Notes under the pieces: generated by a model
What the model saw: the letters and a program-made list of their open reading frames with translations, nothing else
Database searches by the model: none
What the model was told of the DNA's origin: nothing
Made by a program: the position numbers and the translations under genes
In this document: piece by piece, positions 4,502-24,902 of the stretch
Numbering within the stretch: the first letter of the stretch is position 1
Layout of the letters: every line of letters starts with the position of its first letter
DNA from: an uncultured Thermoplasmatales archaeon
GTDB taxonomy: Archaea > Thermoplasmatota > E2 > DHVEG-1
DNA length: 63,166 nt
Reading direction: 5' to 3'
NCBI GenBank assembly: GCA_964592335.1
Contig: CAZQEU010000001.1
Coordinates: 1-63,166 of the forward strand

Positions 4502-5146
4502 TCATATTTTTTCATTAATTCTCTCTGTTTTTGAAAAGATTAAAGGATAGACTATATCACTTGTACAACATGGCAACCACACAGCTAGAAACAAGAAAAC
4601 AAAAATACCGATTGTTTGAACAATACTAACCGTATTACCTAGTGCCATTATAACATGAAACAATGATGCCCAAGTACTTATTAGAACATGTCCCGAGTGA
4701 GGAAATTTTGTAAAACCTTTCCAATATGCAAAAGCTATTCCAATAAAAGCAGGGGCATTTGTAATAATTGGTTTTTCTATAAAGCCGATATGTGCCTCTG
4801 CATTAGGTAGATCAAGCAGTATTTCTCCAAGATAAGGAATAATTGAGTCACTTATTGTTGCAATTCCAATTGCACCTGTGTAACCAATAAGTATTGCAAG
4901 CCATATGTTTTTTTTAGAGTATTTTAGATAGAGAGCTGTTGTGACAAGTGCGCTTAGAAAAACATGGGTTGGATGTAAAATAAAAAATATGTTTTCAGAA
5001 ACTTTGGATACTTCAGATAATAAGCTTGTGTATAACAAAACAAGCATAATAGCTATGCCTGTTACGGCTCCGAATAGAGTAAAAGGAATATGCTGTTTTA
5101 GCTCTTGGGTAATTTTATTTATTTTTTCACTCATAAAAACAAACAT
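4502..5146 (-). CDS. Polytopic His/Cys-rich membrane protein, candidate metal transporter (family not recognised)
   Basis: About 6 hydrophobic segments. Conserved-looking HPTH, AEAH, PHSGH, FH and CC motifs. Divergent from a NikR-like gene. An alternative start lies at 5134 (MSEKINK). Confidence 0.55.
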   Translation of the reverse strand: MFVFMSEKINKITQELKQHIPFTLFGAVTGIAIMLVLLYTSLLSEVSKVSENIFFILHPTHVFLSALVTTALYLKYSKKNIWLAILIGYTGAIGIATISDSIIPYLGEILLDLPNAEAHIGFIEKPIITNAPAFIGIAFAYWKGFTKFPHSGHVLISTWASLFHVIMALGNTVSIVQTIGIFVFLFLAVWLPCCTSDIVYPLIFSKTERINEKI

Positions 5147-5223
5147 ATTATTAACATTTATATAATTTTTTATTAACTTTTATAGTGAAATATATAAGCA
5201 TGTTATTAATTATTGTTGATGTT

Positions 5224-5607
5224 ATGCCAATAATAAGTGTATCACTAAACAAAAAAATACTAGAAGAAATCGATCAGATGCAAGAAGAATACGGCTACTC
5301 CGCAAGATCGGAGTTGATAAGAGCAGGTTTAAGACTTTTGATATCTGATAAAAAAAATACAGAGAAGCTATCCGGAACAATAAAATCAATTCTAATTTTG
5401 ATACATAAACATGATGCCGAGCAAACTGTATCTCAGATAAAACACAAGTTCAAAGATATTACAAAAACACAGATCCACAGTCATTTTAAAGAGGATAAAT
5501 GCCTAGAGATATTTGTGTTAGAAGGAGATGCAGAAAAAATAAAGGAGATGGTCAGACGTCTTCAAACCAGTAAAAAAATGGATTTAATAAAACTAATAAT
5601 TGCATAA
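5224..5607 (+). CDS. nikR: NikR-like ribbon-helix-helix (CopG family) metal-responsive transcriptional regulator
   Basis: The N-terminus MPIISVSLNKKILEEIDQMQEEYGYSARSELIRAGLRLL is an RHH motif as in NikR. The C-terminal ACT-like domain contains His/Cys (HKHD...HSHFKEDKC). The ORF track starts at GTG 5185; ATG 5224 is preferred. Confidence 0.7.
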   Translation: MPIISVSLNKKILEEIDQMQEEYGYSARSELIRAGLRLLISDKKNTEKLSGTIKSILILIHKHDAEQTVSQIKHKFKDITKTQIHSHFKEDKCLEIFVLEGDAEKIKEMVRRLQTSKKMDLIKLIIA

Positions 5608-5643: not shown

Positions 5644-8160
5644 CTAGCTTAAATTGTCGATTATCGGTTGAAGAATATCCTCAAGGAAGGGAAATAGATC
5701 AATTAATTTCTGTAGTATTATGACAATTAAACTATCTGTAGGTTCTCTTATGGTGATGTAATCTGTTTTCTCACTTATTTGATTCATAGGATCCTTTGCT
5801 TTAAATGTAATCTGATATGTGCCCTCTGTATCCCATGTATGGCTTTCAGCATACTTATAACCAGAATTATAAGGCTCAGTCCAACCTGTGATAGATCCAT
5901 CACCCCAATCAATATAGTATGATAAATCCTCGCTTAATGGATCATATGCTGTAAAGTTAAATTCATATTCAATATCACTCCTACCATAACTTGGCCCATC
6001 AATAACTGGTTCATGTGGTGGAGCATTTATGTATATGAACTCTAACATATTATTTGTAGCACCTGCCTTATCTACAGCCATATATTCAAGACCACATGGA
6101 TTACAATAACTTCCTGAAATTTCAAAGGTATCTCCATTATTAACTTCAATCCAATTAGTTTTTCCTTGAATTTTATACTGAATCATATCTAAACCAGAAA
6201 GTTCAGGTTGATCCTGAGCAGTAATAGTTACCGCGACAGGTCCCACATATTCACCATCAACAAGATTTCCATTAAGATCTATATTCAAGTCAGGCGGAGT
6301 CTTGTCAACACCAAACTCATCAGTCACTGGAATTTCCTGATTACCATAATAATCTATAGAATATGCTTCTATAACATGATTTCCTTCAGCACCCACAGGA
6401 ATATACTTTTGTTCTTCAGGAATATATCTTATCCAATCTCCATTGTCTACTCGATAATATGTATCAATTACAGATGTCCAATCAGTAGCAGTAAAAGAGA
6501 TACGCTGAGTATCCTTATACCACTCTGCTCCATTATTTCCAAAACCATGATGAATAGTAGTAACAGGCGGTACAGTTTGATCTATTTTAACTGGAACAGT
6601 TGTTGAACCAGTTGCACCATCGTTATCTGTAACAGTGAGCGTTACATCATATATCATATCAGGTTGAGAAAATTCATGCTCTGGATTTACAATATCTGCT
6701 GTACCTCCATCACCAAAATCCCATTCATATCCAACTATACTACCATCCGGATCATAAGAGTCTCGCCCGTCAAATCGAACTTCTAATTCGTTATCAGCAT
6801 AATCATCAGGGTTTATTCCTGCTACAGGATTCCATATTTCATAAACACCAACAGTTCTGGTCATATAACTCTCCAAGCCACATTGACTCCAAACTGTCAA
6901 AGTAACCTCATAATCTCCTTCAATATTATATTGCCATGTTGGGTCATTATCAGTAGAATCAACTACTCCATCGCCATTAAAATCCCATTCACGAGTAGAA
7001 ACTTTAGCACCTGTTGACATATCATCAAATTCTATTACATCTCCAACATGTGGATATTTTGAACCATAATCAGTTTCATAATCAAAATCTGCATAAACAC
7101 GGCACTCAACATCAGGAATGCCCTCATCAGGACCTTGCGGCCATGCAGGAGTAGTAACATATGTTACATCCCTATCGCCAAGGCTGATACATCCATAGGC
7201 AACATTTGTAAAACCACCGTATCCAAAACCTGTACCCCAACTATTTTTTATAATCCAATATCCTCCATTTTTGATATCTGGATTATCTACCCATCCGCAC
7301 AAAACTTGTGCATGGTTTGTCATACCAGAGTCAGACCCAGAAGGTTCATACACATCAGTTGAACCATGATGACTCCAGCCAAAGTTACTCCAGCCAGATG
7401 ATGCATATATATCAACTGATAGTGGACCATATGTATAAACCCAGCTTTTAAGCAAATCCCAATCACTCTGACTAGATGGAGTTATTGATGTTACACCCCA
7501 AGTCTCTATTTCCCAGAGTTTATTATCAGGCTGAGGAGGGTCAGTCAAATAATCCCAATCATCACATTTGTCACTACAAGGAATATAATCTACTGCTTCA
7601 TAAGGAAAACACGATTCAATCGTACATCCATTAACACCATTTCCCGTAGAACCCATATTTTCACTTTCAATGTACTCTATTGTCTCACTCATCCAGCCTC
7701 CACTGCAGGAACCTGCTGCGCCAAGACATGAAAGAATATATTGCTCAGAAAGATCAATGTTTGTAGAAGGATTACCTGATGAGATGTCTATTGCAGCTTC
7801 CATTGCACCAAGAGCACCAAATGCCCAGCAACTACCGCAATTACCTTGGTCTTTTGCAACTGTTGTCCAATCTCCACCAAAAGATCTCCAATTGAACTGA
7901 GAAGGAAGACCACCGGATGAAACTGTCATCTGTGGGTTTTTAATCATTTTATCTAGTTGCTCCTGTGTTTTTGGAGGAAAACTAGTCGTAACATATCCAT
8001 AATTGTCATATTTAATTTCAGAGTCCTCTGAGCTTTTTTTCTCAAAAATTACATTCTTATCATTGTTTTTTTCAACAGGAAAAATATTTCCTGTGTTAAC
8101 TACTGCAAATGCACTTGCTAAAAATAGTCCTACAACTAAAATAGAAAAAATTTTTTTCAT
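5644..8160 (-). CDS. Secreted papain-family (C1) cysteine peptidase fused to PKD and Ig-like domains, with a novel C-terminal tail
   Basis: Signal peptide MKKIFSILVVGLFLASAFAVV. Catalytic motifs QGNCGSCWAF (Cys), TNHAQVLCGW (His) and IIKNSWG (Asn). PKD signatures WDFNGDGVVDS, YEWDFGDGGTA and YIDWGDGS. Tail: LIVIILQKLIDLFPFLEDILQPIIDNLS. Confidence 0.85.
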   Translation of the reverse strand: MKKIFSILVVGLFLASAFAVVNTGNIFPVEKNNDKNVIFEKKSSEDSEIKYDNYGYVTTSFPPKTQEQLDKMIKNPQMTVSSGGLPSQFNWRSFGGDWTTVAKDQGNCGSCWAFGALGAMEAAIDISSGNPSTNIDLSEQYILSCLGAAGSCSGGWMSETIEYIESENMGSTGNGVNGCTIESCFPYEAVDYIPCSDKCDDWDYLTDPPQPDNKLWEIETWGVTSITPSSQSDWDLLKSWVYTYGPLSVDIYASSGWSNFGWSHHGSTDVYEPSGSDSGMTNHAQVLCGWVDNPDIKNGGYWIIKNSWGTGFGYGGFTNVAYGCISLGDRDVTYVTTPAWPQGPDEGIPDVECRVYADFDYETDYGSKYPHVGDVIEFDDMSTGAKVSTREWDFNGDGVVDSTDNDPTWQYNIEGDYEVTLTVWSQCGLESYMTRTVGVYEIWNPVAGINPDDYADNELEVRFDGRDSYDPDGSIVGYEWDFGDGGTADIVNPEHEFSQPDMIYDVTLTVTDNDGATGSTTVPVKIDQTVPPVTTIHHGFGNNGAEWYKDTQRISFTATDWTSVIDTYYRVDNGDWIRYIPEEQKYIPVGAEGNHVIEAYSIDYYGNQEIPVTDEFGVDKTPPDLNIDLNGNLVDGEYVGPVAVTITAQDQPELSGLDMIQYKIQGKTNWIEVNNGDTFEISGSYCNPCGLEYMAVDKAGATNNMLEFIYINAPPHEPVIDGPSYGRSDIEYEFNFTAYDPLSEDLSYYIDWGDGSITGWTEPYNSGYKYAESHTWDTEGTYQITFKAKDPMNQISEKTDYITIREPTDSLIVIILQKLIDLFPFLEDILQPIIDNLS

Positions 8161-8271
8161 ATTTTTTTACACCTCCACCTAATTAACTATGGTTAATTTT
8201 AAAATGCAATATTGTGACTTAAAGCTTTTGGTTGTAACTATCAACACCATATTTTTTTGATTTGTAACTAA

Positions 8272-11172
8272 TCATCCAGATAACAAAGCAATCAAGGGTT
8301 GGAGAATAGGCTCAAGAACCGGGAATAAGTCAATTAGTTTTTGAAGTAACAATATAAGTAAAGTTGGCGTTTCATCGTCATCATCCTCCCAATTAGTTAT
8401 TACAACCCATGTATCCATCCTCCAGCTCTGTCCTGATTCATCATATGCTGTTGCTTGAATCATCTTGGATACAGTACTATCTTTTAGAATATCTCCTTTC
8501 GTATACAACCCAGCAATTTCTTGTTGAACATCACAAAACCATTCATATGGCGGGGTATCATCTATATAAGGCAGCCCATCTATTTCGCCAAATGGCTCTA
8601 TGTCAAACTCTACTCTTACAACACCTACATTATCTGATGCAGTGGCATATACCCAAAAAGGAGCCTCGACCTGTGCTTCATCTGCCGGGGATGTAATTTC
8701 TAAATAGGGTTTATCTGCATCGATTTTAATCTCGATGGTATTGCTATTTTCTGTTTTATCTTCAACGTTTCCCTTATTGTCAACTGACCAAAAATTTATG
8801 CTCCATTGACCTTGCCAATCATCATATTGTGTAACCTCAAGAATAATTCCAGATACATCGTTATATACTTGGTTTGATCCTCCATTTATTGTATAATATG
8901 TTTTATCTATGCCGCTACCTGTCAAAGGAGGGTTATCCTCAGCGTTGAGTTTAACTGTTACAGATTCAGAGGTATACCATTCATAAAGACCCTCAGTTCC
9001 AATAATATCTCCAATAGAAGTTGATGGGGGATCATCATCGGTTCCAATAAATCTTACTTTCCAATAATCAAGAACAGGTGTTGTTGAAGGATTATCTCGG
9101 TTAAAAGTGGCCTTCAACCTTATTTGTTTAGTTGTTATATCCTGAATAGGGGCATCAGAGGAGATATCTGATTTTAAAATAGTATTTGGGTTATTTGCAT
9201 CTAAAATATCAAATCGGATGCTACCGGTGGTCACTACAGCTGAGAAATCAACCCAGTTCTCCCAGTTCTCAGGATCAATTGGATCTGAAGTAATATATGC
9301 ATTTAAAACAAGACTTTTTTCTTCTCCATAAATAATGTTTACATTACTAGAGCCAGGTGTTTTAAAGGACCATTGATTAGCATAAATATCAGGGAAATCT
9401 AGATCATCATATGGATTCATGTATTCAATTCTTAAGTCTTCCCATGCAACAAATAATTTTTCCCCATCAGATCCTAATGTACACCAATCCGCTGGACTTG
9501 ATTCAGTATCGGAGAGTTGCTTTTCATAAACAAGAATCTCTCCCTCTGAAGATACAAGACTGCCCCATATCTCACCGCTACCATCATAAGATATAAAAAA
9601 AGAGGATGAAAGATAAGGAACCACTTTTGCTCTTTTAAAATTACCTTCAGCTACTTTAAAAGCAGATACAGCAGTACCGCCATTTTGATCTATAATGGTT
9701 GCCCAAATATTACCATATGTAGAACCACTACTGATATCATCATTTTGCCATACAACAATGAATTTCTCAGCTGTTGCCGAAAACGTAGTACTTGGATAGT
9801 TATAATCAGTATTTGTCGTACCCTGATCAGATATAAGACGGGGCGATCCTAGCGGGTTTCCATTTGTATCAAAAAGCTGACCCCAAATATCAAAAGGCCC
9901 GTTTGCTGCATTTAAGCCTTCCTCCCATACAACATAGAAATGGTTATTGACATCATCAAAAGCAATCCATGGCTGACATTGACTATGCGGCCGACTTGAA
10001 ATAACTTTTTCACTTCCAACAGGCGTTCCATCGATATCATATAACTGACCATATATGTTGTAATTACCTGTTCCTTCACGACCATCTTCCCAGACAACAA
10101 AAAAACGTTTGTTCTTTGAATCAAAAGCAACCCTAGGATCAGATTGAATACCTGATGCATCGCAAATCGTAAAACGTGTTATATCGCCAATTCCTGTTGT
10201 GGATCTTGGAACTATGGCACCATGGATTTGTGTTGTTAATCTATCATTTGGTGTTTCAAAGTATTCATACGCAACAAAGAAATTATAATTATTTCCATCT
10301 CTACCATAAGCAACAGATGGATCTTCACATCTAAAGGTCTCAAAATTATTTGAATCCCAAGGTGTTATATCAAACCTATTACCAATACGCTGACCTTCTT
10401 CATCATAAAAACAACCTCTGATTTGTATTTGATAAATCAGACCCAATGGCACATATCTTGGTGTTCCCTCCATCCAGCTGACAAGATAACGATCTTCACC
10501 AAAATCAACATCTGGAGTCCATGCGCCTTCTTTTGCCATATGAAGAGTTACTTTATGATCATGGGCATATTCTTTCTGCCAACTGTTTTCATTGAATACA
10601 GACCAGTAACTACTTTGATCCCCTGCAGAAGGATTTCCATAAAATAGATATATCTCATTTTCACCACTCGGAAACAATGGAATTTTAAGCCATACTATTG
10701 CATAGAGATTATTAGGATCAGGATTTTTTTCTTCTATCCAATAACTAAGCCAATAATCTTCGTCATTAAACTTAAAACGAAGATCACCGTAATCAGAGCG
10801 CATATCTGTATCATAGTCAATAGTTAGTTTGATTATGCAATCATTAATTGTTTCCTGACTTGTTACTTCAATTATCTTCATCCTTGTCCAATCAGGATCC
10901 TTCCACTGAGGGTAAGTATCTACAATCTCAACAGTTCCTTGGTTAGGATCTAAATAATATTTATCTGACAAGCTATTATCTATTTTCTGAGCGTTGAAAA
11001 AATCATCTTCCCATTTATAGTATTCGCTATTTGAGGTCATAAGCAAAGTTTCATTTTTTTCATCAAGATCAATACTTGTTTTTATAACAGCTTCAGCTAC
11101 TGATGATATTAAAAACAAAAAAACAACTAAAGCAGCGGCTATTCTAAACAAATTTTTATTTTTTTTATGCAT
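8272..11172 (-). CDS. Secreted DUF2341-domain protein with a putative ~6-bladed beta-propeller and Ig-like domains, same C-terminal tail
   Basis: Signal peptide. DUF2341-like segment DYGDLRFKFNDEDYWLSYWIEEKNP...IYLFYGNP. About six ~50-aa repeats of the type FFVVWEDGREG..NIYGQLYDIDGTPVG. Ig-like TYYTINGG domains. Tail: LLILLLQKLIDLFPVLEPILQPLIALLSG. Confidence 0.75.
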   Translation of the reverse strand: MHKKNKNLFRIAAALVVFLFLISSVAEAVIKTSIDLDEKNETLLMTSNSEYYKWEDDFFNAQKIDNSLSDKYYLDPNQGTVEIVDTYPQWKDPDWTRMKIIEVTSQETINDCIIKLTIDYDTDMRSDYGDLRFKFNDEDYWLSYWIEEKNPDPNNLYAIVWLKIPLFPSGENEIYLFYGNPSAGDQSSYWSVFNENSWQKEYAHDHKVTLHMAKEGAWTPDVDFGEDRYLVSWMEGTPRYVPLGLIYQIQIRGCFYDEEGQRIGNRFDITPWDSNNFETFRCEDPSVAYGRDGNNYNFFVAYEYFETPNDRLTTQIHGAIVPRSTTGIGDITRFTICDASGIQSDPRVAFDSKNKRFFVVWEDGREGTGNYNIYGQLYDIDGTPVGSEKVISSRPHSQCQPWIAFDDVNNHFYVVWEEGLNAANGPFDIWGQLFDTNGNPLGSPRLISDQGTTNTDYNYPSTTFSATAEKFIVVWQNDDISSGSTYGNIWATIIDQNGGTAVSAFKVAEGNFKRAKVVPYLSSSFFISYDGSGEIWGSLVSSEGEILVYEKQLSDTESSPADWCTLGSDGEKLFVAWEDLRIEYMNPYDDLDFPDIYANQWSFKTPGSSNVNIIYGEEKSLVLNAYITSDPIDPENWENWVDFSAVVTTGSIRFDILDANNPNTILKSDISSDAPIQDITTKQIRLKATFNRDNPSTTPVLDYWKVRFIGTDDDPPSTSIGDIIGTEGLYEWYTSESVTVKLNAEDNPPLTGSGIDKTYYTINGGSNQVYNDVSGIILEVTQYDDWQGQWSINFWSVDNKGNVEDKTENSNTIEIKIDADKPYLEITSPADEAQVEAPFWVYATASDNVGVVRVEFDIEPFGEIDGLPYIDDTPPYEWFCDVQQEIAGLYTKGDILKDSTVSKMIQATAYDESGQSWRMDTWVVITNWEDDDDETPTLLILLLQKLIDLFPVLEPILQPLIALLSG

Positions 11173-11190
11173 TATATATTCCCTCCAAAT

Positions 11191-13770
11191 TTATCTTTCA
11201 ATTTCATGCCATTCTGTATTTCCTTGTAAATCAGTCCAAAGAAGATAACCTTCAAAATCATCCATGTTAAACTCATAGTCAAGCCAGTAATACAAAAACG
11301 GGAATGTATTTATCAACCACCATTCTAGGTTCAAATAAAACCCAAAATTTTCAAGATAGATATCCACACCGTATTTATCATCATATGTAAAATAGAGATC
11401 AAATTCTTCTAAGTTTTCCTCATCTGTGTCATGGTTAATCCTAAAGAATCCAGGATTACCTGCTTCTCCTCTATCAAAATCCCAGTCCATATCAAAAGTT
11501 AGATAATCTGAAAGTGTGATATGTCCATCTAAATCAAATACTTCATTGTCTTGAGCAAATTGTGAAAAATCCAATGTTAAAGCGTTACCTTGAGCAACAC
11601 CTATCTCAAAATTACCACTTTGCCCTAGCTGCCAGTTCAAATCCAGTGAACCTGATTTACCTTGATAGTTCAAATCAAGATGTAGGTTTTTAAGTGTATC
11701 AATGAGGCCTTTGAATCCTAGATTGTTGACTTTTAACTGACTTGTGGAGGTATCAAGATTCCAATCTGCTCTAAAACCTTCTGCAGATACCTCCTCAATA
11801 TCAAGGTCTATCGAGTCCCCAGTCTCAGTATTTTCAACATACAATGTGTTACCAAACATCTTACTTGTTGTATCAAGTGCCAGATAACCATTATTGTCTA
11901 AATCAAAACTAGTATCAATTGTTCCATCACGAATCTCAAGAGTATCATCTAAAACAAAACTACCATAATCAGGATGATCAAATTCCAAATGAACATGTAC
12001 AGGGTCAACATTATGTCCCGTTGAAGACCTTGTAGCTCTTGCAAATCCTGATAGTCTATTCCAATATAGTTTTCCTTCAGCAGATGCATATGACGGAATA
12101 TCTGTCATCTCAACAAGCGGTGTTTCAACTGAAGGGAGAAAAACCTCGATTTCATCTATATTTCTACTACAACTATGCCCTAGCTTTCCATATACATAGT
12201 TGCTATCAGACATAATATTATCTAAATCAACATTTGTCTGGATTTCTGCGTTAACATAAGTACTTCGCGGTATCCCCTCAGGAATATTTAAAAGAACAAG
12301 TTCTTCATCTCCTGCATAGGTTTTTGGATAAAAAACTGTAATCTTTTCGATACTTGAGCTCATGTCAAGATCAATTCCACCACTAACATCTAAATCAACT
12401 CTTTTGTTTTCCAGAGATATACTACCATCGATATCCCAAGAAAGATCAGCGCTTGTTGGAAGGCTATCAACCTTTATTTTTTGATTAAAAGATGGAGAGT
12501 TAACTAAAAGATCGACATCAAACTTGTCACTTGCTTTATAATGAAAATTACCCCCCAAGGGTTCATTATCACCGATTAAATCTAGATCAAAAGACATCCA
12601 TGAATCAGATTTTGCTAGATTATCATCTATTTTATCAAAAACTAATGTCAAATCAATATCTTCTCCCAAGCCATCTAAAAGATTTGATGAATAAGAAATT
12701 GCCACTTCATCATTTTTTTGACTGCCAGTATCATAATGATAATATACATATCCTCCAAGCGGTATGAATTTTGTTTTTAGATAAACAGCTGGGTCAAAAC
12801 CAATTGAAAAATCAATATCATAAGATGGATTTGCCTGACCTTCTAAAAAGGCTCTAAAACCATAAATCATTTCAATAGGGTCCTGATTTGAAGAGTCAGG
12901 ATTAGTTATTTGTTGAAACATAGTCGGACTGAAAATATTTTGTCGGGCAAAAGCAAATCTCTTATCTGTATAAAGAGGTATCTTAGCTCCTTGAGGTGAT
13001 CGGTATCCATTTCCAACTGATATACAATCATTATCAGCAGCAGTTGGCTCTACAGGTTCGTCACTTGATCCAACAATATTATTTATTAAATTTTGTAAAA
13101 TATTGATTAAAGGACTATTTGGCAAAATATTTGATATATGTGAGATAAGATTATTTAACAGATTTACAATAAGACTTTGAGAATTGCTTTGTCCACTGCT
13201 ACCTGCTTTTTTTATTAAACCAAAATTTACATGTATTGTTGATCTTACCTCAAGTTCTCCATTTGAATCCTCAATATAACTTCCATTTTGTAGTTGCCTG
13301 GCTTGAACACGTGTTTCAAGGGATTTTACTTCATTTCCATCTGGATTCATTATGGTTGCCCAGTAAAAACCAGCTGTAACTTCTAAGTCATCTTCTGGGT
13401 CGCTATCAATATCAAAATATATTTTTTCTCCATACTCCGGATGCTTTAAGAATCTATCCTTAAAATCTGTGGTATCAACTGGAACTTGTTTTTGGAAGAG
13501 TACTCCGTTGTATTCGACTTCAATTACCCACTCTAAAAAATTTCCTGATACCTGAGCAAAATTAGGAGAGTAAGTAAAATAAGAATTTTCATCATTTGAA
13601 TTTGACAAAACTTGGTTTTTATTTAACTCTAAATTTTTTGGGTTAACATCAGCAGCAGCTGCAAAAGAAAAGCCGGCAATATTTATCATGCTAAATAACA
13701 AGCTTATACTAACTAAAAATACTATTTTTTGCTTTACCCCCACATTTATCACCTCTTTTAAATGTTCCAA
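11191..13770 (-). CDS. Secreted orphan protein (859 aa) with an internal copy of the Leu/Ile-rich tail module
   Basis: N-terminal signal/TM (KIVFLVSISLLFSMINIAGFSFAAAAD). No family recognised. Acidic, beta-rich D/L/N repeats. The internal module SLIVNLLNNLISHISNILPNSPLINILQNLINNIV is at nt 13063-13176. Confidence 0.7.
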   Translation of the reverse strand: MEHLKEVINVGVKQKIVFLVSISLLFSMINIAGFSFAAAADVNPKNLELNKNQVLSNSNDENSYFTYSPNFAQVSGNFLEWVIEVEYNGVLFQKQVPVDTTDFKDRFLKHPEYGEKIYFDIDSDPEDDLEVTAGFYWATIMNPDGNEVKSLETRVQARQLQNGSYIEDSNGELEVRSTIHVNFGLIKKAGSSGQSNSQSLIVNLLNNLISHISNILPNSPLINILQNLINNIVGSSDEPVEPTAADNDCISVGNGYRSPQGAKIPLYTDKRFAFARQNIFSPTMFQQITNPDSSNQDPIEMIYGFRAFLEGQANPSYDIDFSIGFDPAVYLKTKFIPLGGYVYYHYDTGSQKNDEVAISYSSNLLDGLGEDIDLTLVFDKIDDNLAKSDSWMSFDLDLIGDNEPLGGNFHYKASDKFDVDLLVNSPSFNQKIKVDSLPTSADLSWDIDGSISLENKRVDLDVSGGIDLDMSSSIEKITVFYPKTYAGDEELVLLNIPEGIPRSTYVNAEIQTNVDLDNIMSDSNYVYGKLGHSCSRNIDEIEVFLPSVETPLVEMTDIPSYASAEGKLYWNRLSGFARATRSSTGHNVDPVHVHLEFDHPDYGSFVLDDTLEIRDGTIDTSFDLDNNGYLALDTTSKMFGNTLYVENTETGDSIDLDIEEVSAEGFRADWNLDTSTSQLKVNNLGFKGLIDTLKNLHLDLNYQGKSGSLDLNWQLGQSGNFEIGVAQGNALTLDFSQFAQDNEVFDLDGHITLSDYLTFDMDWDFDRGEAGNPGFFRINHDTDEENLEEFDLYFTYDDKYGVDIYLENFGFYLNLEWWLINTFPFLYYWLDYEFNMDDFEGYLLWTDLQGNTEWHEIER

Positions 13771-13893: not shown

Positions 13894-16863
13894 TTAGAGA
13901 GGAACAAAAATTACCTTTTTCAGACTAACACTTGATATCATAGTATCTCCTTTGTATGCTTTAACAGTAATTTTATATTTTCCAAAAGCTAAATCTAAGT
14001 CGGTTTTAAAACCATTAAATGATGTGTTATCCCAATTTTCAATTTTATCCCCCGTTCTATGTTTAGTTGCAATGAATTTTACTTTTTCAATATCTTCTGA
14101 TACTTCTGTGCTTATATGAAGAGAAGAATTAAAGACAATAACTCTGTCTAAAAACGATAAAATTTTTGAATTATATACAAAGCCTTTATACTGAAAAGTT
14201 CCAATGTCAGGATAGCTGATTGATAAAATATCAGAATCAGATTTTGTCCAGAACTCCCATACCGGCCCCTCAGTGGTTCCGTCATCATCTTTGGCAATTA
14301 CTTTCCAATAATAATGAGTGTTAGACTTCAAAGACTCAATATTATAGTAGTCATTTGTTATCCCTGAAGCAATTTTTTGTGTTGGACTTGCATCGTTTGC
14401 TTCTAATATCAGGTCATAATAAGTCATATCTAAATTATTAGATTCCCAAGAAAACACAAAAGACAAATCCAAGTTTTTTGAACCGGTTTGAGGATATGGG
14501 TTAATCGGTATCTCAGGTGGTTCATCATCTCCATAAACATTTATTAAAACGCTTTCTGCATCTGATACAAAAACATCATGAATGCTTATCTCAACAGGTC
14601 CTCCTCTCTGTGACTGGATTCTTTCGATTTCTTCATCATCGAGATTACTTGTTACTCGATCTATCATCCCTTGAGCCTTAAAAATATTTTTAACATTTCC
14701 AGGGCTTAGCGCTTTTGCTTCATAGCGAATTATGATCTTTTCACCAGGGAATATTGGCTCTCTAAAATAATAAAAAAATATCGTGTCTACTAAATCTATT
14801 TCATAGTTGACATTTGAAGCTATTGAAAAACTACCATCAACATATTCTAAGTTATTTGGTAAAATATCTCCAGCTCTTATGTAGAATATCCTACTTGCTG
14901 AATTTGGATTAGCTATCTCACATCTAAACTTTAGAACTTGGCCACAATATGCATCAATATTATCCACCCATTTATTTGTATTTGAGTCGAATATTTTTTT
15001 GTCTACCTGTATAGCTACTTCACTTTCTTCACCAACAATATTTACATAGACATTGTAGACAATATCTTGAAAAGACGATGAAGAAATATAGATTGATGCA
15101 GAATGTGGACCGGGACTTAATGTATTTGTATCGATTGTTACGCTTATCTCAGTTGATTGACCTGATTCGATTTTACCGATTGCAGGGGCTATTGATGTTA
15201 TCCAATTTGAGTTTTCACTTAATTCATATTCAAGATTTCCTCCACCAGTATTTTGTATTTCAAAAGTTTTTGTCATGGTTTCACCGGTTTGCATATTTCC
15301 AAAAACAAGTGATTCAGGAGTGATCTCAAGTTGTGGTTGGTTTGGGTCAAATATATCAAATTCTAAGGTGAAATAATCCGTCCGGTCATTTGAGTCAATC
15401 TCAACATCACAAGAATGATGAGTACCAGCAATTAGATCGGTTGTATCAACACCTATATTTATTGTCTCATATTGTTCAGGCCCTAATAATCCTATATCAG
15501 GATCAACATAAGTAATCCATGGACAATCCCAGTTTAAAGAAAAGCTTAGTTGCTCAGTACCATAGTTATGTATCTGAAAAGAGGTTTCATAAATCATTCC
15601 TTCATCTAAATCTCCAAAATCATAGTTTTCTGGGTTAAAATACAAAATAGGTTGATCACCTACTATCTCTAAATTTATTGAAAACACTGCATCTCCCGCA
15701 TTTGAACTTATTAAAATATCACAATAATACACATTACCAGTATTCAACAAAGAAGTATCAACCGTAACACCAATTGTATCAATCTCCCCACTCGAACTAC
15801 CACCAACCGAATCCAACGTAACCCAATCACAAGACTCAAACAAACTATAAGTCAAAACACCCGAGCCAGCATTCCAAATATCAAAAGACGTTGTCCGAAA
15901 ACTGCCTTTTACCACTTCACCAAAATCATAAGATGTTGGATCAAACATAAGTATTGGCCCCTCTAAACCATCAGACACATAAACATGAACAGTAAAAACT
16001 GCATTACCCACATCTGTTATAATTTCAATATCACAATAATGATCCTGATCATCTGTCAACAAAGAAGTATCAACCGTAACACCAATTGTATCAATCTCCC
16101 CACTCGAACTACCACCAACCGAATCCAACGTAACCCAATCACAAGACTCAAACAAACTATAAGTCAAAACACCCGAGCCAGCATTCCAAATATCAAAAGA
16201 CGTTGTTTTTGATTCACCTTTTACCACATTTCCAAAATCCCAAGATTGAGGATTATAAGAAAGAACAGGTTCATCTTCATCCTCTGAACTTACAAAGATA
16301 AATTGCTCTTCAATATAATCACTTGCTGGAGGCAATACTCTTCCAGCACCTGCGGCTGCTGAAACAGAGCCTGATGCAGATCTTACTATTTCTGCTCTAA
16401 AGGTCATTGTCTCCGACCAAGAAGAATACAGACCCGCCCATATCCAATTGACAAGTGTATTATCTGCTTCAAAATATACTAGTTTAATATCATCATTTGT
16501 TTTTGGTGATTGGCTACCTTCAATAAAATCAAACATCGGATCTTCATCAGGAGATGGTAAACCAAAGCCTGCTGTAAGATAACCATTACTCTTGAATTCA
16601 ATTTCAATTTTAAATTCAATAATCGATCCAACTTCTGCATAAAGAGGTGTATCTTGCCAAGATCCATCAGGGTAATCTCTTATCTTAAAATCAAATGACT
16701 CTATAATTTCATGATCATCATTTATCTGCAGTAGATTATTATTTTCAAAAAGACTACCTGCTTCTGCATTATGTCCTGTATTGATACTAAAAGATATTGG
16801 AAAAAAGAGAAAAAAAACAATTGAACTAACCAAAAATTTTTTCAGATTATTTCTATAATCCAT
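13894..16863 (-). CDS. Secreted protein with four HYDIN/choice-of-anchor-D-like Ig repeats, DUF11-like segments and an FN3-like domain
   Basis: Signal peptide. Four repeats of the type Y(D/N)FG.V..G......F.I.N.G.G.L.Y.L. FN3-like segment PYPQTGSKNLDLSFVFSWES...HYYWKVIAKDDDG. Confidence 0.75.
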   Translation of the reverse strand: MDYRNNLKKFLVSSIVFFLFFPISFSINTGHNAEAGSLFENNNLLQINDDHEIIESFDFKIRDYPDGSWQDTPLYAEVGSIIEFKIEIEFKSNGYLTAGFGLPSPDEDPMFDFIEGSQSPKTNDDIKLVYFEADNTLVNWIWAGLYSSWSETMTFRAEIVRSASGSVSAAAGAGRVLPPASDYIEEQFIFVSSEDEDEPVLSYNPQSWDFGNVVKGESKTTSFDIWNAGSGVLTYSLFESCDWVTLDSVGGSSSGEIDTIGVTVDTSLLTDDQDHYCDIEIITDVGNAVFTVHVYVSDGLEGPILMFDPTSYDFGEVVKGSFRTTSFDIWNAGSGVLTYSLFESCDWVTLDSVGGSSSGEIDTIGVTVDTSLLNTGNVYYCDILISSNAGDAVFSINLEIVGDQPILYFNPENYDFGDLDEGMIYETSFQIHNYGTEQLSFSLNWDCPWITYVDPDIGLLGPEQYETINIGVDTTDLIAGTHHSCDVEIDSNDRTDYFTLEFDIFDPNQPQLEITPESLVFGNMQTGETMTKTFEIQNTGGGNLEYELSENSNWITSIAPAIGKIESGQSTEISVTIDTNTLSPGPHSASIYISSSSFQDIVYNVYVNIVGEESEVAIQVDKKIFDSNTNKWVDNIDAYCGQVLKFRCEIANPNSASRIFYIRAGDILPNNLEYVDGSFSIASNVNYEIDLVDTIFFYYFREPIFPGEKIIIRYEAKALSPGNVKNIFKAQGMIDRVTSNLDDEEIERIQSQRGGPVEISIHDVFVSDAESVLINVYGDDEPPEIPINPYPQTGSKNLDLSFVFSWESNNLDMTYYDLILEANDASPTQKIASGITNDYYNIESLKSNTHYYWKVIAKDDDGTTEGPVWEFWTKSDSDILSISYPDIGTFQYKGFVYNSKILSFLDRVIVFNSSLHISTEVSEDIEKVKFIATKHRTGDKIENWDNTSFNGFKTDLDLAFGKYKITVKAYKGDTMISSVSLKKVIFVPL
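15744..15894. repeat. Copy 1 of a perfect 151-bp direct repeat inside the 989-aa gene
   Basis: Compared base by base with 16056-16206 and found identical. The offset is 312 bp (104 codons, in frame). Confidence 0.95.
16056..16206. repeat. Copy 2 of the perfect 151-bp direct repeat
   Basis: Identical to 15744-15894. Both copies encode TTSFDIWNAGSGVLTYSLFESCDWVTLDSVGGSSSGEIDTIGVTVDTSLL. Confidence 0.95.
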
Positions 16864-19938: not shown

Positions 19939-22128
19939 TTGAAGGAGAAAACATTAAAGATATATGTTTCAATTATACTTTTTTTCCTTGTTATATGGGC
20001 CTCCAGCAGTTTAGTAAGTAACATGAAAATAATTGATAGAGATGAAGATGGGTTAAAAGACGAATTAGAATATTCTTTAGGAAGTAATCCTTTAAATATC
20101 GATACAGATAATGATGGTTTAGAAGATTATAAAGAGTACAACTACTGGATAAATAGATCAAAAGATGCTTTTGATGAAGAGTTCTATGATTATTGGAAAC
20201 AATATTGGAACGAGACATTTAATTTGAAAATCTCTGAAAATGATTTAAAGAAGATGCTTAAGCCAGATGGGGATATTGATGGTGATAACAAATCAAATAT
20301 TTGTGATGATGACTCAGATAATGACAAACTTTTAGATGGTTTTGAACTCAAAAATGATACCGATCCTGCTCTTCCGGATTTAAATCCACCCTCCAGTAAT
20401 GATGGAGGCGGTGGGGAAAATAGCAACAGCGATGATTCAGAAGGAGGCGGAGGAGGAGATAGAAACGATACAATAACTGAAATAACAAAGATTTCATCAA
20501 GTCAGATATATAAAACAGGTTTTTTTTATGTTCAAGGATATGTTACAGATAATTTAAATAAACCAGTAGAAAATATGACTATCGAAGTTTTTGTAAATAA
20601 AACAAAGGATACGCCAGGTAGCTTTGCAGGGACAGGATCTATTGATTCGAACGGTTTTTTTAATATATCCTGCGAGGTTCCAAAAGATGTAGATGTTGGA
20701 TCAAATCAAGTTGTTGCACATACATTATCAAATGACGAATACGGAGATTCCTGGTCTGATCCAACTATTAATATTTATTCTAATACAACATTGACCCTTG
20801 ACACAGCATCATCAGCAGGTAAAGATTTTGTCTTTCCTATCAAAGGGAGTCTATTAGATGTTGATGATCAACCCTTAGAAAATAAAACAGTTAGGATAAA
20901 GTGGGACAATGAATTTTTAACACTTGATAAAACAAACAATGAAGGAAATTTTATATTTAATACTTCAAATAAAACTCTTGGAAATCATAGGATTGATGTA
21001 GAGTTTGATGGTAGTGAATTCCTAGGATCTTCAAACGATTCACAAAAAATAATAATTAAAGATATGGACACCTATCTATTTGCTATTACTCCAACTGATA
21101 ATTTTAGGAGGGGAGAAGAAGTAACAGTACAAGGACAATTATTTACAGGACTTGAAGAACCTCTCCCAAATAGTGAAATAAAGATATTCTTTGAAAATAA
21201 TTTAGTATCATCGCTTCAAACATCTAGTCAAGGATCATTTACTTCAAATATTAAAATTCCTGATAACTCAAAAGTTGGTGAAATACCTATAAAAATAAAA
21301 TTTCCGGGTACAGATTATTATGCAGAAGCAGAAATAGAAGATACAATAGGAGTTGAATCAGATACAAATATAAATTTTATTTCCCCTATTGAAAAGAATT
21401 TCATACAAAATGATTCTTTAGTGATTATAGGAAATATAACAGATGATAAAAAAAATCCTGTTGAAAACGTATCAATTGAAATCTCTTTTATAAATCTAAG
21501 TGAAAAGATAGATTCAGATAACAATGGTTCTTTTCAAACAATAATTAAAATTCCTTCTAATATTTCTAATGCCTCATATAATATAAAAGCAGATTTCTAT
21601 GCAACAAACTATTATTTATCATCAAAAAATAGCATCTCAATAATAGTTGGAGTTGTCGAAACAAATCCAGATACATCTGATAATAATCTTTTAATAATCT
21701 TAAGTATTGTAATTCTTGGGTTGATAAGTGGTGGTATTGTATTCAAAGTTTTCAAAAACAAAAAGGGAGAAACAACAGTTATAGATCCTCGATCTATAGA
21801 AGATATTGCTTCAAGTACGATAAATAAATTAAAAAATGAACCCGATTGCAGAAAAACCGTCTTGGAGTGTTACTTAAATCTATGTAAATGGCTTGATGCA
21901 ACAGGTCTGAAAAAAAACAAACATGATACTCCCAGAGAATTTGCAGTTGATCTCAAAAAATCTCTAGATGTATCAGATGATTGCTTGTCATCTCTTACAA
22001 CTGTATTTGAGAAAGCATGCTACAGTGACCATGAAATAATTGATGATGATAAAAAAACTGCAATAAATTGTCTAACTGAAGTAATTAACACAATTGCCCA
22101 TGATAACCCAAAAAATGTGAAAGGATAA
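19939..22128 (+). CDS. Membrane protein with TSP3-like Ca-binding repeats, an array of Ig/CarboxypepD_reg-like domains, a TM helix and a C-terminal DUF4129 domain
   Basis: TTG start after a GGAGGG SD. Repeats DRDEDGLKDELE..NPLNIDTDNDGLEDYKEY. Gly-rich linker. TM helix LLIILSIVILGLISGGIVFKVF. DUF4129-like TPREFAVDLKK...FEKACYSDHEI. Confidence 0.75.
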   Translation: MKEKTLKIYVSIILFFLVIWASSSLVSNMKIIDRDEDGLKDELEYSLGSNPLNIDTDNDGLEDYKEYNYWINRSKDAFDEEFYDYWKQYWNETFNLKISENDLKKMLKPDGDIDGDNKSNICDDDSDNDKLLDGFELKNDTDPALPDLNPPSSNDGGGGENSNSDDSEGGGGGDRNDTITEITKISSSQIYKTGFFYVQGYVTDNLNKPVENMTIEVFVNKTKDTPGSFAGTGSIDSNGFFNISCEVPKDVDVGSNQVVAHTLSNDEYGDSWSDPTINIYSNTTLTLDTASSAGKDFVFPIKGSLLDVDDQPLENKTVRIKWDNEFLTLDKTNNEGNFIFNTSNKTLGNHRIDVEFDGSEFLGSSNDSQKIIIKDMDTYLFAITPTDNFRRGEEVTVQGQLFTGLEEPLPNSEIKIFFENNLVSSLQTSSQGSFTSNIKIPDNSKVGEIPIKIKFPGTDYYAEAEIEDTIGVESDTNINFISPIEKNFIQNDSLVIIGNITDDKKNPVENVSIEISFINLSEKIDSDNNGSFQTIIKIPSNISNASYNIKADFYATNYYLSSKNSISIIVGVVETNPDTSDNNLLIILSIVILGLISGGIVFKVFKNKKGETTVIDPRSIEDIASSTINKLKNEPDCRKTVLECYLNLCKWLDATGLKKNKHDTPREFAVDLKKSLDVSDDCLSSLTTVFEKACYSDHEIIDDDKKTAINCLTEVINTIAHDNPKNVKG

Positions 22129-22144
22129 AAAAAGAAGGAATTTG

Positions 22145-22642
22145 ATGATATCAGAACATATAATGATAAGTATAAACCCTGCTTTAAAATGGTCTATTTT
22201 CGTAATTATTTTTATAATTGCAGGATTTGCACTTTTTCATCTGATTTTTAAAAACTCTAAAAATCCTAAGGATTGGAAACATAGAAACATATACTCAAAA
22301 AATCATGAGAAAGCTAATTTAAAAAAATTTGCAGATTCCATACGTTTTCAGACTCTTGAATATGACTATAATACTTCTTTAGAAGAAGTAATACAAATGA
22401 TTTTTTTTAAAAAAATAGAGTATAACAAAGGATTATCTGTAGAAGAGCTTTATGAAATTAAAAACAAAAATCCAGAAGCTCTCAGAAACATAATAGCAGA
22501 TGATGATATATACAATTGGATTTTAAACTCAGAAAAAGAGAAGGATAAAAATAGTTTTTTTTGGAAGAAAAAAACAAAAGAAGAAGGAGAATATTTAAAA
22601 AAAATAAATATGGTTATTGATAAAATGGAGGCCTGGGTATAG
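22145..22642 (+). CDS. Single-pass membrane protein of unknown function (MoxR operon member)
   Basis: One TM helix (WSIFVIIFIIAGFALFHLIF) is followed by a charged helical domain. Its stop abuts the MoxR start. TTG 22142 or ATG 22145 could be the start. Confidence 0.5.
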   Translation: MISEHIMISINPALKWSIFVIIFIIAGFALFHLIFKNSKNPKDWKHRNIYSKNHEKANLKKFADSIRFQTLEYDYNTSLEEVIQMIFFKKIEYNKGLSVEELYEIKNKNPEALRNIIADDDIYNWILNSEKEKDKNSFFWKKKTKEEGEYLKKINMVIDKMEAWV

Positions 22643-23599
22643 ATGAATGTGACTGTAACAGAAATATCTTCTGTTTGTAAAAAATTAATTGATGAAGTAG
22701 GAAAAGTAGTAGTTGGTAAAGAAAATATGCTAAAGTATGTAATACTTGGTATACTCACAGATGGACATATCCTCTTTGAGGATTATCCTGGTCTTGCAAA
22801 GACTTTGACTGCAAAAACATTTTCACAGGCTATGGGCTGTAAGTTTTCTCGTGTTCAATTTACACCGGATCTTCTACCCGCAGATATCACAGGGACGTAT
22901 ATATACAATCAAAAGGAAAGTGAATTTAAACTTATTAAAGGACCAATTTTTACAAATATACTTCTTGCAGATGAGATAAATAGGGCTCCGCCAAAAACAC
23001 AGGCAGCACTTCTTGAAGCAATGCAAGAGAAACAAACAACTATGGAAGGACAAACATATCATCTGGAAAAACCTTTCTTGGTTCTTGCAACTCAGAACCC
23101 TATAGAATATGAAGGGACATATCCTCTACCAGAGGCACAAATCGATCGTTTCTTATTGAAACTAAGCGTAGGTTATCCTGAGCCACATGAAGAAAAAGAA
23201 ATACTTACACGTATGAAAAAAATTGATTTACATGATGCAAAGGTTGACAAAGTTGTTTATCCAAGTGATATTCTAAAAATGCAGGAGGTTGTAAAAAGTG
23301 TTTTTATCGATGAGAAAATCGAAGAATATATTGTAAACATTGTTCATAACACTAGATATGATGCCCGCGTAGAAGTAGGTGTAAGCCCACGTGGTTCCAT
23401 AGCACTTTTTAAACTCTCAAAAGCCCATGCTGCTTTTCATGGGCGAGACTATGTGATTCCTGATGATATAAAACAAGTCTCAGTTCAAGCTATTGCTCAT
23501 CGTCTTGTTTTAAAACCAGAGACAAGATTCAAGGGAATAAAACCCGGACAGATAATAAATGAAATCATGAGTGAAATCCCAGTACCTACGGTAAGATAG
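22643..23599 (+). CDS. MoxR-family AAA+ ATPase
   Basis: HILFEDYPGLAKTLTAKTFSQAMGCKFSRVQFTPDLLPADITG, LLADEINRAPPKTQAALLEAMQE and VLATQNPIEYEGTYPLPEAQIDRF are classic MoxR motifs. Confidence 0.9.
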   Translation: MNVTVTEISSVCKKLIDEVGKVVVGKENMLKYVILGILTDGHILFEDYPGLAKTLTAKTFSQAMGCKFSRVQFTPDLLPADITGTYIYNQKESEFKLIKGPIFTNILLADEINRAPPKTQAALLEAMQEKQTTMEGQTYHLEKPFLVLATQNPIEYEGTYPLPEAQIDRFLLKLSVGYPEPHEEKEILTRMKKIDLHDAKVDKVVYPSDILKMQEVVKSVFIDEKIEEYIVNIVHNTRYDARVEVGVSPRGSIALFKLSKAHAAFHGRDYVIPDDIKQVSVQAIAHRLVLKPETRFKGIKPGQIINEIMSEIPVPTVR

Positions 23600-23601
23600 A
23601 T

Positions 23602-24894
23602 ATGCAAACTTTAAAAGCAGCAGGTTTCATCAGTGCAATTATCGGTTTGATACTACTTGCTCTGATACTTATTCAATGGTTCTTTTTTTTACTTGTGATA
23701 CCGCTGTTTTTATACATGTTTATAAGTACTGTTTTTTTTAACAATGAAGATTTAAAGATAGATGTTAAAAGAACCATTTCAAAAGAAAAAGTTTTTGAAA
23801 AAGATAAAGTAGAAATAACCCTTGAGCTGGAAAACAAGGGAGAAAACATTAATTTTTTAGAAGTGTTTGACAAGTTATCAGAAAAAATAAGTATATCAAA
23901 AGGTAGCAACTATTTTGTATTAAGCCTGAAAAAAAATGAGAAAATAACTGTTAAATACGAAGTTAGCTGCGATGTTAGAGGTCATTATGAGATTGGATTG
24001 CTTCATCTTAGATCACGTGATTTTTTTGGTTTTTTTTATCGTGAAAAGATAATAGAAGACATATCACATCTTGTTGTAATACCACACATTGAAGATATAA
24101 GAAGTATTTACATAAAAGAAAAAGCAAAGCTTTACCCCGGTGTTGTTCTTGGTAGTCAAGCAGGTCTTGGAACAGAATTTTATGGAATTAGGAAATATGT
24201 GCCAGGAGATACTTTTAAACAGATTAACTGGAAATGTTTTGCCAGGTTTAATGATTTAGTTGTAAATGAGTACACACTTGAGAGTACAACCGATGTTGTA
24301 ATAATCATTGACTCAAGGGATACAGAAAGCATGGGATCTGTAGTTTTAAATCCTTTAGAATACAGTGTAAAAGCAGCAGTTTCAATTGCATCTTTTTATC
24401 TTAAAAGACGTGATAGAGTAGGCCTGCTCTCCTATGGATCTGCAGATGGAGAACTTATCTGGGTTTATCCTGATTCTGGAAAAAAACAGCTTTTTAAAAT
24501 AACAGAGAAAATAGTTGAACTACAAGCAAATGGTGATTCTAATTTTACCAATGCCGTAAACCAGGCAGTTATTCATATGATTCCAAAAAGCTCACTAGTG
24601 ATATTTATAAGCTCATTGGAAAACGATGAAACAATTGGTGGAGGAATAGGAAAACTATCAAAACTAGGTTTTAAAACATTGGTTATATCACCTTCTCTTA
24701 TAGATATTGAACATTTAATCCAAAAAGATGATTCAGATGAATACGATGAAATAGCATATAAAATTCTTTCTCTGGAACGTAAAAATGTTATATCTGAGCT
24801 GAGAGGAGCAGGCGCCCTACTTATTGATTGGAATCCAAAAAAACCACTTTCAGTTTCACTTGAGGAGGTGCAAAAATATCAGGTAAGACGCTGA
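23602..24894 (+). CDS. DUF58 domain protein (vWA-like MoxR partner) with N-terminal TM helices
   Basis: FYGIRKYVPGDTFKQINWKCFARFNDLVVNEY is the DUF58 signature. The gene starts 3 nt after the MoxR stop. Confidence 0.85.
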   Translation: MQTLKAAGFISAIIGLILLALILIQWFFFLLVIPLFLYMFISTVFFNNEDLKIDVKRTISKEKVFEKDKVEITLELENKGENINFLEVFDKLSEKISISKGSNYFVLSLKKNEKITVKYEVSCDVRGHYEIGLLHLRSRDFFGFFYREKIIEDISHLVVIPHIEDIRSIYIKEKAKLYPGVVLGSQAGLGTEFYGIRKYVPGDTFKQINWKCFARFNDLVVNEYTLESTTDVVIIIDSRDTESMGSVVLNPLEYSVKAAVSIASFYLKRRDRVGLLSYGSADGELIWVYPDSGKKQLFKITEKIVELQANGDSNFTNAVNQAVIHMIPKSSLVIFISSLENDETIGGGIGKLSKLGFKTLVISPSLIDIEHLIQKDDSDEYDEIAYKILSLERKNVISELRGAGALLIDWNPKKPLSVSLEEVQKYQVRR

Positions 24895-24902
24895 ATAATC
24901 TA

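Follow-up and report, generated by a model that had tools for sequence, protein, structure and literature searches.

A conserved C-terminal tail on unrelated exported proteins of an uncultured Thermoplasmatales archaeon

The gene cluster and its exported products

We analysed contig CAZQEU010000001.1 (assembly GCA_964592335.1) of an uncultured Thermoplasmatales archaeon over positions 1 to 63,166, hereafter the window, with the focus on a short C-terminal tail carried by two of its exported proteins. The window has a GC content of about 31% and encodes Top6A/B-like and Kae1/Bud32-like open reading frames (ORFs), and the orthologues of the proteins described below carry source names of the type "Thermoplasmatota / Thermoplasmata archaeon". 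A Logan contig of run SRR15425350 represents the same stretch.

Four large genes lie head-to-tail on the minus strand of the ORF list and encode, in this order, a 989-aa protein and the proteins which we call P3, P2 and P1. At the N-terminus of all four products, a short basic stretch and then a hydrophobic segment like that of a signal peptide can be read by eye. The ORF list together with Pfam and NCBIfam identifies P1 (positions 5644-8160, minus strand, 838 aa) as an exported papain-family (C1) cysteine peptidase with Peptidase_C1, PKD and OmpL47-type barrel domains; its first residues, MKKIFSILVVGLFLASAFA, look like a Sec signal peptide. By the same means P2 (8272-11172, minus strand, 966 aa) was recognised as an exported DUF2341 and Big_7 protein with the signal peptide MHKKNKNLFRIAAALVVFLFLISSVAEA, and it has at least 120 orthologues in metagenome-assembled genomes (MAGs) of Thermoplasmatota. 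Its conserved upstream neighbour P3 (11191-13770, minus strand, 859 aa) is an exported all-beta protein that no Pfam model covers. The P3 start in the ORF list is a TTG codon (13744-13770), while the public annotation begins 9 codons downstream (850 aa, P0124); residue numbers given for P3, here and in the initial annotation of the window, refer to the 859-aa version. The fourth gene (13894-16863, minus strand) encodes an exported choice-of-anchor-D/DUF11 protein according to Pfam and NCBIfam, and this protein does not carry the tail.

The P3-P2 pair is kept in all nine related loci (L002, L003 and L036-L042) and belongs to a Thermoplasmatota gene cluster. After the pair, the cluster continues with a C1 peptidase or a PKD protein and then with C25 and/or S8 peptidases. 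Further along come an opposite-strand NosD and PKD protein that ends in a transmembrane (TM) segment and a basic tail, and a protein of about 230 aa with an N-terminal TM segment. The gene before P3 encodes the choice-of-anchor-D protein in the window and its orthologue in L002. In L039-L041 type IV pilus-like genes (Pilin_N with Laminin_G, T2SSF, T2SSE) adjoin the cluster; the window contains none.

P1 and P2 end in the same tail

P1 runs up to its stop codon with TDSLIVIILQKLIDLFPFLEDILQPIIDNLS and P2 with TPTLLILLLQKLIDLFPVLEPILQPLIALLSG. The P1 tail, SLIVIILQKLIDLFPFLEDILQPIIDNLS (5647-5733, minus strand), takes up the last 29 aa before the stop codon, follows the short polar linker REPTD and gives a profile match of 53.8 bits that lies 0 residues from the end. 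The 30-aa P2 tail, TLLILLLQKLIDLFPVLEPILQPLIALLSG (8275-8364, minus strand), follows the acidic linker DDDDETP. Their common pattern is LLQKLIDLFPxLExILQPxI. The two endings align without a gap, with 20 of 31 residues identical, and their Smith-Waterman score of 99 was reached by none of 20,000 shuffles (23.9 ± 4.8; z=15.5). Outside the tail, P1 and P2 have just a weak OmpL47/Ig-type stretch in common (BLASTP E=0.02).

At the DNA level 58 of 93 bases match, and different codons are used at 12 of the 20 identical residues (the same codon at 8). Given the shuffle result the similarity is not compositional, and given the low DNA identity and the differing codons it is kept by selection on the protein. 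The initial annotation had proposed that P1 and P2 share an ending which is conserved as protein and is not a recent copy, and both parts of this proposal held. Recent gene conversion as the source of the similarity was rejected in view of the synonymous differences, both here and for the tails of a further genome (genome B, see below).

The tail recurs on other exported proteins

The tails alone, compared with Pfam and NCBIfam including the curated CTERM sorting domains, gave no match even at E≤10, and the tail regions were left unmatched when the whole P1 and P2 proteins were used. The ending is therefore an unannotated C-terminal module, which supports the earlier suggestion. When 1.84 billion representative proteins were searched with a tail profile, one true relative was returned, a lower bound because the search covers matches at E≤0.001 and cannot see tails on cluster members that are not representatives. 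The relative is P0003, a 665-aa CLIPPER/PKD-type protein with the C-terminus PIIVILLQKLIELFPILGPILQPIIDQFM. Two other matches, a TPR repeat protein and a VQPVVDN repeat protein, were rejected as false.

For comparisons between genomes we refer to the window as genome W, to L002 (a syntenic contig of run SRR33089659) as genome A and to L038, of assembly GCA_964578185.1, as genome B. Three proteins of genome A bear the tail, namely the P2 orthologue (SILWVLLNKLIELFPILAPILQPLIDMLG), the C1 peptidase orthologue (NLIVRLLQKLIDLFPILEPLLQPVIDSYS) and a C25 gingipain-like peptidase (NILVRLLQKLIDLFPILEPILQPIIDQL). The contig with P0003 comes from the same sample as L002, is unrelated to it and has housekeeping neighbours, so the tail reaches beyond one locus.

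P1, P2, P0003 and the three proteins of genome A make up the six strict tails, in which 12 of 29 positions are invariant (L7, K9, L10, I11, L13, F14, P15, L17, L21, Q22, P23 and I25). When the 63-kb window was translated in all six frames, their profile matched it exactly twice, each time right before a stop codon. A variant, ILNFLEVFPKLEKLLQPLLNFYM, forms the C-terminus of an exported 274-aa protein in a Thermoplasmatales MAG (L008), and together with the six strict tails it ends 0-1 residues before the stop codon. The carriers combine N-terminal signal peptides with extracellular domain types (C1, C25, PKD, CLIPPER/DUF11 and DUF2341).

The strict type is rare. A 38-bit degenerate DNA pattern gave 18 matches in 185,579 species genomes, of which L008 alone was real and the other 17 were due to chance. 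All 11 matches of a 42-bit DNA pattern in metagenome contigs of the Joint Genome Institute were chance matches, and no real tail was found there. A word-indexed protein search with a 43-44-aa tail alignment, for which the index is ill-suited because the tails are short, gave no match.

Looser tails (e.g. ERFPLLQPLL) were seen at the ends of PKD, S8 and DUF2341 proteins from other Thermoplasmatota. Among the C-termini compared are those of the P2 orthologues P0025 (LFINRMIERFPLLQPLLNLYG) and of L036 (LFLNRMIEKFPILQSLLNFYI) and L038 (LLNNFLSRYPLLRAIILNTL), of PKD proteins in L036 (IDLIQKIFSNFDYLEGLFDLIFS), L003 (NNDLLQKLFDFINMLEEILENTRIYKILS) and L037 (DFPIIQKLLSILFSKGS), and of the C1 peptidase in L038 (LLDFFLRDFPLLRQILYNLYYMM). 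An S8 subtilase of L039 ends in LFTKLLERFPFLQNLFLFF plus 13 aa, and a second DUF2341 protein of L041 has IIWRFLQRFHLDNGILQNLLNLIINL near its C-terminus. Many pairs between these groups of tails score z=5-8 above shuffles, so that they form one loose, fast-evolving family. Further C-terminal occurrences, for which the initial annotation had proposed to look, were thus found on other signal-peptide proteins of related genomes.

The tail is an amphipathic helix and not a membrane-spanning anchor

A classical C-terminal TM helix with a basic tail is present on two further exported proteins of the window, an S8 subtilase of 1725 aa that also has NosD and PKD domains (33706-38883) and a NosD protein of 344 aa (26069-27103). 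Exported proteins of this organism thus have C-terminal endings of at least two different kinds. These two endings and those of the related loci served as real anchors for comparison. The best 19-residue Kyte-Doolittle window of the strict tails is 1.3-2.0 and that of the real anchors 2.7-3.4, while the octanol-scale sums are -1 to -8 and -7 to -18, respectively. The strict tails have 3-6 charged residues spread over their length and a net charge of -1 to -4. They end in DNLS, LLSG, DQFM, DMLG, DSYS or DQL, with no terminal basic cluster, and most contain one Lys and neither Trp nor Tyr; some looser tails are basic.

Taken over its full length, the hydrophobic moment of each of the six strict tails has its peak at 100-104 degrees (at 102 degrees in P1), a result reached by 4-32 of 2,000 shuffles, and the real TM anchors lack this peak. 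A polar stripe (Q/K, D/E, P, E/D-or-P, Q/P, D/N) stays in phase across both prolines of the tail. This points to one long kinked amphipathic helix or to two in-phase helices, and does not fit a membrane-spanning segment or a re-entrant hairpin. When the last 209 residues of P2 were modelled with AlphaFold2 (AF2) from an alignment of 11 tail-bearing orthologues, helices were predicted at residues 181-192 and 194-208 of the fragment with a predicted local distance difference test (pLDDT) of about 80-89, and the acidic linker before them (173-177) was disordered.

An ordinary single TM anchor or a re-entrant hairpin, with a similarity that arises from composition, is hardly credible against this background. 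The best Kyte-Doolittle windows of three tails (1.67-2.03) do pass the classical threshold of 1.6, and the octanol-scale sums of the tails are slightly negative. However, the genuine anchors of the same genomes lie at 2.7-3.4 and -7 to -18 on these scales and end in KKKK or RKRKK, whereas the tails show spread charges, an acidic end and strong amphipathicity, and they resemble each other far more than their composition would predict. The initial annotation had considered a re-entrant hairpin, and had named an ordinary anchor with compositional similarity as the case that would speak against a distinct module. The charges, the hydropathy far below that of real anchors and the single alpha-helical phase contradict the former, and the low hydropathy, the amphipathic phase and the z-score of P1 and P2 contradict the latter.

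The tail might also be a sorting signal that a membrane protease or transpeptidase (archaeosortase-, rhombosortase- or CPBP-like) removes while it attaches the protein covalently. The strictly C-terminal position, the presence on several proteins per genome, the conserved Pro-containing motif and the lineage-specific variants speak for such a signal, and attributes of this kind are listed for C-terminal sorting signals (10.1101/2023.06.07.544157). PGF-CTERM/ArtA, PEF-CTERM, PEP-CTERM, LPXTG and CGP-CTERM signals likewise form the very end of several unrelated surface proteins in a genome and possess a short conserved motif with lineage-specific flavours, and the strict tails do occupy the extreme C-terminus of signal-peptide proteins. 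These signals have a tripartite architecture of motif, TM helix and basic cluster (10.1101/2023.06.07.544157), whereas the tail has neither a TM helix nor an Arg/Lys cluster after its motif, in agreement with the earlier remark that the hallmarks of known sorting signals are missing. It also matches no NCBIfam sorting-domain model, and no candidate for a dedicated processing enzyme was found among the scanned window ORFs or in the nine related loci. We therefore regard cleavage and covalent attachment as very improbable.

The tail type follows the genome in three genomes

In genomes W and A the tails of the C1 peptidase and of the P2 orthologue both read LLQKLI[DE]LFPxLxxILQP, and in genome B both read FLxR[FY]PLLRxI..N. 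Between W and A the C1 bodies are 51% and the P2 bodies 52% identical, and the tails 62-69%. Between W and B the values are 60% and 53% for the bodies and 21% for the tails, and between A and B they are 46%, 55% and 21-24%, respectively. The two tails of genome B are alike (z=6.4), yet they differ at synonymous sites, which makes recent gene conversion unlikely. Since the B tails resemble each other and not those of W and A, while the bodies are about equally diverged, two unrelated proteins appear to have switched their tail type together. As far as the sequences indicate, the tail type thus tracks the genome and not the protein in W, A and B. Such a concerted switch would be expected if the tails fit a common partner or each other, unlike in plain lipid binding.

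The P2 orthologues share their body up to the motif ...W.YI.NWE and then diverge. Some end in helical tails of 30-47 aa, others in unrelated beta-rich domains of 76-117 aa, of which there are at least three kinds and for which no Pfam match was found. A third ending consists of a Gln/Ser-rich linker followed by YTMLRQLLGLR (in its general form LRQLLGL[KR]). With these three kinds of ending the tail is one of several interchangeable C-terminal appendages, and the end of P2 looks like a 'choice of anchor' slot. The initial annotation had expected that orthologues without the module would argue against it, and this expectation came true in part, as many P2 orthologues have no tail.

P3 contains a tail-like insert

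We retrieved 95 relatives of P3. The AF2 model of P3, built from 86 sequences, shows an all-beta body with long strands (mean pLDDT 78, predicted template modelling score 0.65). A Foldseek comparison of this model with PDB gave no meaningful fold match (TM-scores ≤0.13), and the best matches were generic large beta-sheet or lipid-binding proteins (ApoB100, LPD-3 and LptD).

A third copy of the module had been placed inside P3 at aa 199-236 (nt 13063-13176). There is indeed an insert at this location (aa 189-244; 13039-13206, minus strand), for which AF2 predicts a low-complexity linker, an amphipathic helix (197-215), an LPNS turn, a second helix (220-232) and an acidic, Pro-containing linker. 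The helices have a pLDDT of about 73, and the flanks (189-197 and 234-244) are disordered. The insert lies between the conserved motifs HVNYGL[IV]K and D.DY.S.G.GYRSP and 94 of the 95 retrieved orthologues possess it, the exception being a 599-aa fragment with no alignable insert. It is about 45-80 residues long and hypervariable.

The claim that the insert is the same module did not hold up as well as its location. The score between the P1 tail and the P3 segment was reached by 75 of 20,000 shuffles (p about 0.004) and that of the P2 tail by 1,528 of 20,000 (p about 0.08), and the strict tail profile did not detect the P3 insert. A broad, [FY]P-anchored tail profile had its best match inside the insert in 57 of 73 P3 orthologues, although the insert makes up 7.9% of the length, and just two of these matches (e.g. 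KFIQQILEKNDFPVLRNLFNKL) beat reversed-sequence decoys. The motif P-hh-xx-hh has a 28-fold higher density in the insert than outside it. Judged by these comparisons, the P3 insert seems to follow a tail-like design, which in some orthologues comes very close to the tail, and its homology to the tails is unproven. It may simply be the sole amphipathic helical element of a beta protein.

A partial echo of the module, EWWLINTFPFLYYWLDY (11275-11325, minus strand), had also been proposed near the C-terminus of P3. We rejected it as a copy, since it is predicted to be a conserved beta-hairpin of the folded P3 body. Its AF2 strands span residues 800-819 and 826-835, and W817 and W829 are invariant in the P3 family.

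A possible role in docking or membrane anchoring

The tail stands strictly at the C-terminus of signal-peptide proteins with extracellular domains, behind a flexible linker, and presents a broad hydrophobic face that has to be shielded from water. For these reasons it is most likely a surface-retention or assembly device. What the hydrophobic face is buried in is the point on which the two leading explanations differ.

One of them is an in-plane (monotopic) membrane anchor: the exported enzyme would be tethered by its C-terminal amphipathic helix, which would sit in the outer interface of the cytoplasmic membrane. This is physically plausible, yet on balance doubtful. E. coli PBP5 and PBP6 are comparable: each is exported by Sec, is soluble apart from a short amphipathic helix at its C-terminus, and has neither a TM segment nor a covalent attachment. 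The PBP5 helix is about 18 residues long and cationic/aromatic. The tail described here has 28-30 residues, is punctuated by prolines (FP...P...QP), is net acidic, is conserved residue for residue across unrelated proteins and has no sequence relationship to PBP5. Thus an amphipathic terminal helix with a moment near 100 degrees is present on the exported proteins, as in PBP5, and the interfacial basic and aromatic residues are missing from the strict tails. Pestivirus Erns offers another likeness, since a long extracytoplasmic C-terminal amphipathic helix with conserved charged residues holds an enzyme of the secreted type, but this viral helix is longer, a 'charge zipper' hairpin has been proposed for its charges, and it is unrelated to the tail in sequence and context (PMC3937272, PMC8002126).

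In favour of the in-plane anchor, the concept of C-terminal amphipathic anchors has been described (PMC1564421), with PBP5 (PMC1564421) and Erns (PMC3937272) as precedents, and the alpha-helical moment peak extends along the full tail. Wimley-White estimates for partitioning of the tails into the interface, with folding, are -9 to -20 kcal/mol. The sequence turns over fast between lineages while amphipathicity is retained, the linker before the tail is short, and comparable exported proteins of the same clusters end in a TM segment with KKKK, which suggests that the tail fills the 'anchor slot'. On the other hand, the strict tails are net acidic and have no flanking basic residues. Invariant polar residues and prolines, a tail that is conserved above the body and concerted switching of its type would also be unexpected for plain lipid binding.

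The same features lead us to favour, tentatively and as the most plausible of the specific explanations, a lineage-specific C-terminal docking or address helix which would be recognised by a shared, co-evolving protein acceptor. It accounts for the invariant polar residues and prolines, the tail being conserved above the body (62-69% against 51-52% between W and A), the purifying selection seen at synonymous sites, the net acidic character with no flanking Lys/Arg, which is unusual for a lipid-binding helix, and the concerted switch of tail type within a genome. The predicted helices behind a disordered linker would suit a docking helix as well. The docking peg considered in the initial annotation is therefore viable, with some support from the co-variation of tail types within genomes.

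In the proposed mechanism, the tailed protein would be exported by Sec and its signal peptide removed, as the N-termini imply. Its last 28-30 or so residues would then fold as one proline-kinked amphipathic alpha-helix or as two in-phase helices and would be left uncleaved. The broad Leu/Ile/Phe face would be buried non-covalently in a shared surface protein acceptor, for which other tails (as a helical bundle) or a receptor are candidates. In this way unrelated exported hydrolases and binding proteins could be retained or assembled together. Besides the tails themselves, the tail-less neighbours are candidate acceptors, notably P3 with its tethered helix-turn-helix. Going by their place in the conserved cluster, these tail-less partners (P3, and the 989-aa protein in the window and L002) could act as a scaffold.

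Several points weigh against a protein acceptor. It is still putative, and the interaction is one that we infer from sequence features. The window holds just two copies of the tail within 63 kb, and given the partitioning estimates above, a protein partner is not needed to bury the hydrophobic face. Co-variation of the tail type rests on three genomes only, the tails of the P2 orthologue and the PKD protein are unlike each other in L003, L036 and L037 (z about 0), and, judged by the P3 bodies, W is closer to A (62%) than to B (49%). Finally, most P2 orthologues carry other appendages in place of the tail, which makes the tail dispensable for the P2 family.

Among known docking systems, the multi-enzyme complexes of dockerins and cohesins resemble the docking helix in that a common C-terminal module, of a type that seems to be organism-specific, sits on different hydrolases. 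Here the same module with an organism-specific type was seen on several proteins of W, A and B, and not in L003, L036 and L037. Dockerins are duplicated Ca-binding folds of about 70 aa with identified cohesin receptors, whereas the tail is an amphipathic helix of about 30 aa with a putative acceptor, and no Pfam dockerin or cohesin match was found in the scanned window proteins or the tails. A second parallel is the STABLE protease of Staphylothermus marinus, which is bound to the coiled-coil stalk of tetrabrachion. There too an archaeal extracellular protease is held non-covalently on a helical surface structure, but the binding determinant is another one, and nothing here points to a coiled-coil stalk protein.

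A stronger version of the docking reading, which we consider unlikely, is that the tails act as a genome-specific 'zip code' that joins exported C1, C25 and S8 peptidases and binding proteins in one surface complex, with the P3 helix-turn-helix insert or a bundle of tails as the acceptor. If true, sediment Thermoplasmatota would have a counterpart of the cellulosome that degrades protein, with docking by a single amphipathic helix instead of a folded dockerin.

Benthic Thermoplasmatota have been proposed to degrade detrital protein by means of extracellular cysteine peptidases (PMC6461988, PMC6752024). The tail is a testable candidate for how these uncultured, possibly wall-less archaea keep peptidases at the cell. 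It is unannotated, stands under clear purifying selection, is common to C1, C25, S8, PKD and DUF2341 proteins and varies between genomes, and it can serve as an annotation marker for cell-associated as opposed to released enzymes. If a protein acceptor exists, the tail would be part of a new, minimal archaeal docking system. Targeted literature searches found no description of the tail module. C-terminal retention tags and amphipathic anchors are already known; what is new here is a lineage-restricted tail with unusual residue-level conservation and genome-specific types.

Other genes of the window

In the 989-aa protein (13894-16863) the sequence FDIWNAGSGVLTYSLFESCDWVTLDSVGGSSSGEIDTIGVTVDTSLL occurs twice, in two near-identical internal repeats, which points to a recent domain duplication within the gene. 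Immediately downstream of the C1 peptidase gene, a NikR-type regulator gene is divergent from a gene for a 214-aa multi-TM protein (4502-5607). The latter has no Pfam family, apart from a weak DmeF-like match, and is probably a nickel/cobalt transporter.

Farther away, at 19939-25775, a MoxR AAA ATPase, a DUF58 protein and multi-TM proteins are encoded beside a 729-aa exported DUF4129/CarboxypepD_reg protein. This gene group resembles a Bat-like aerotolerance or surface operon. A full-length serpin (47878-49161; Pfam E=2e-121) with an N-terminal hydrophobic segment is encoded 9 kb from the large subtilase gene.

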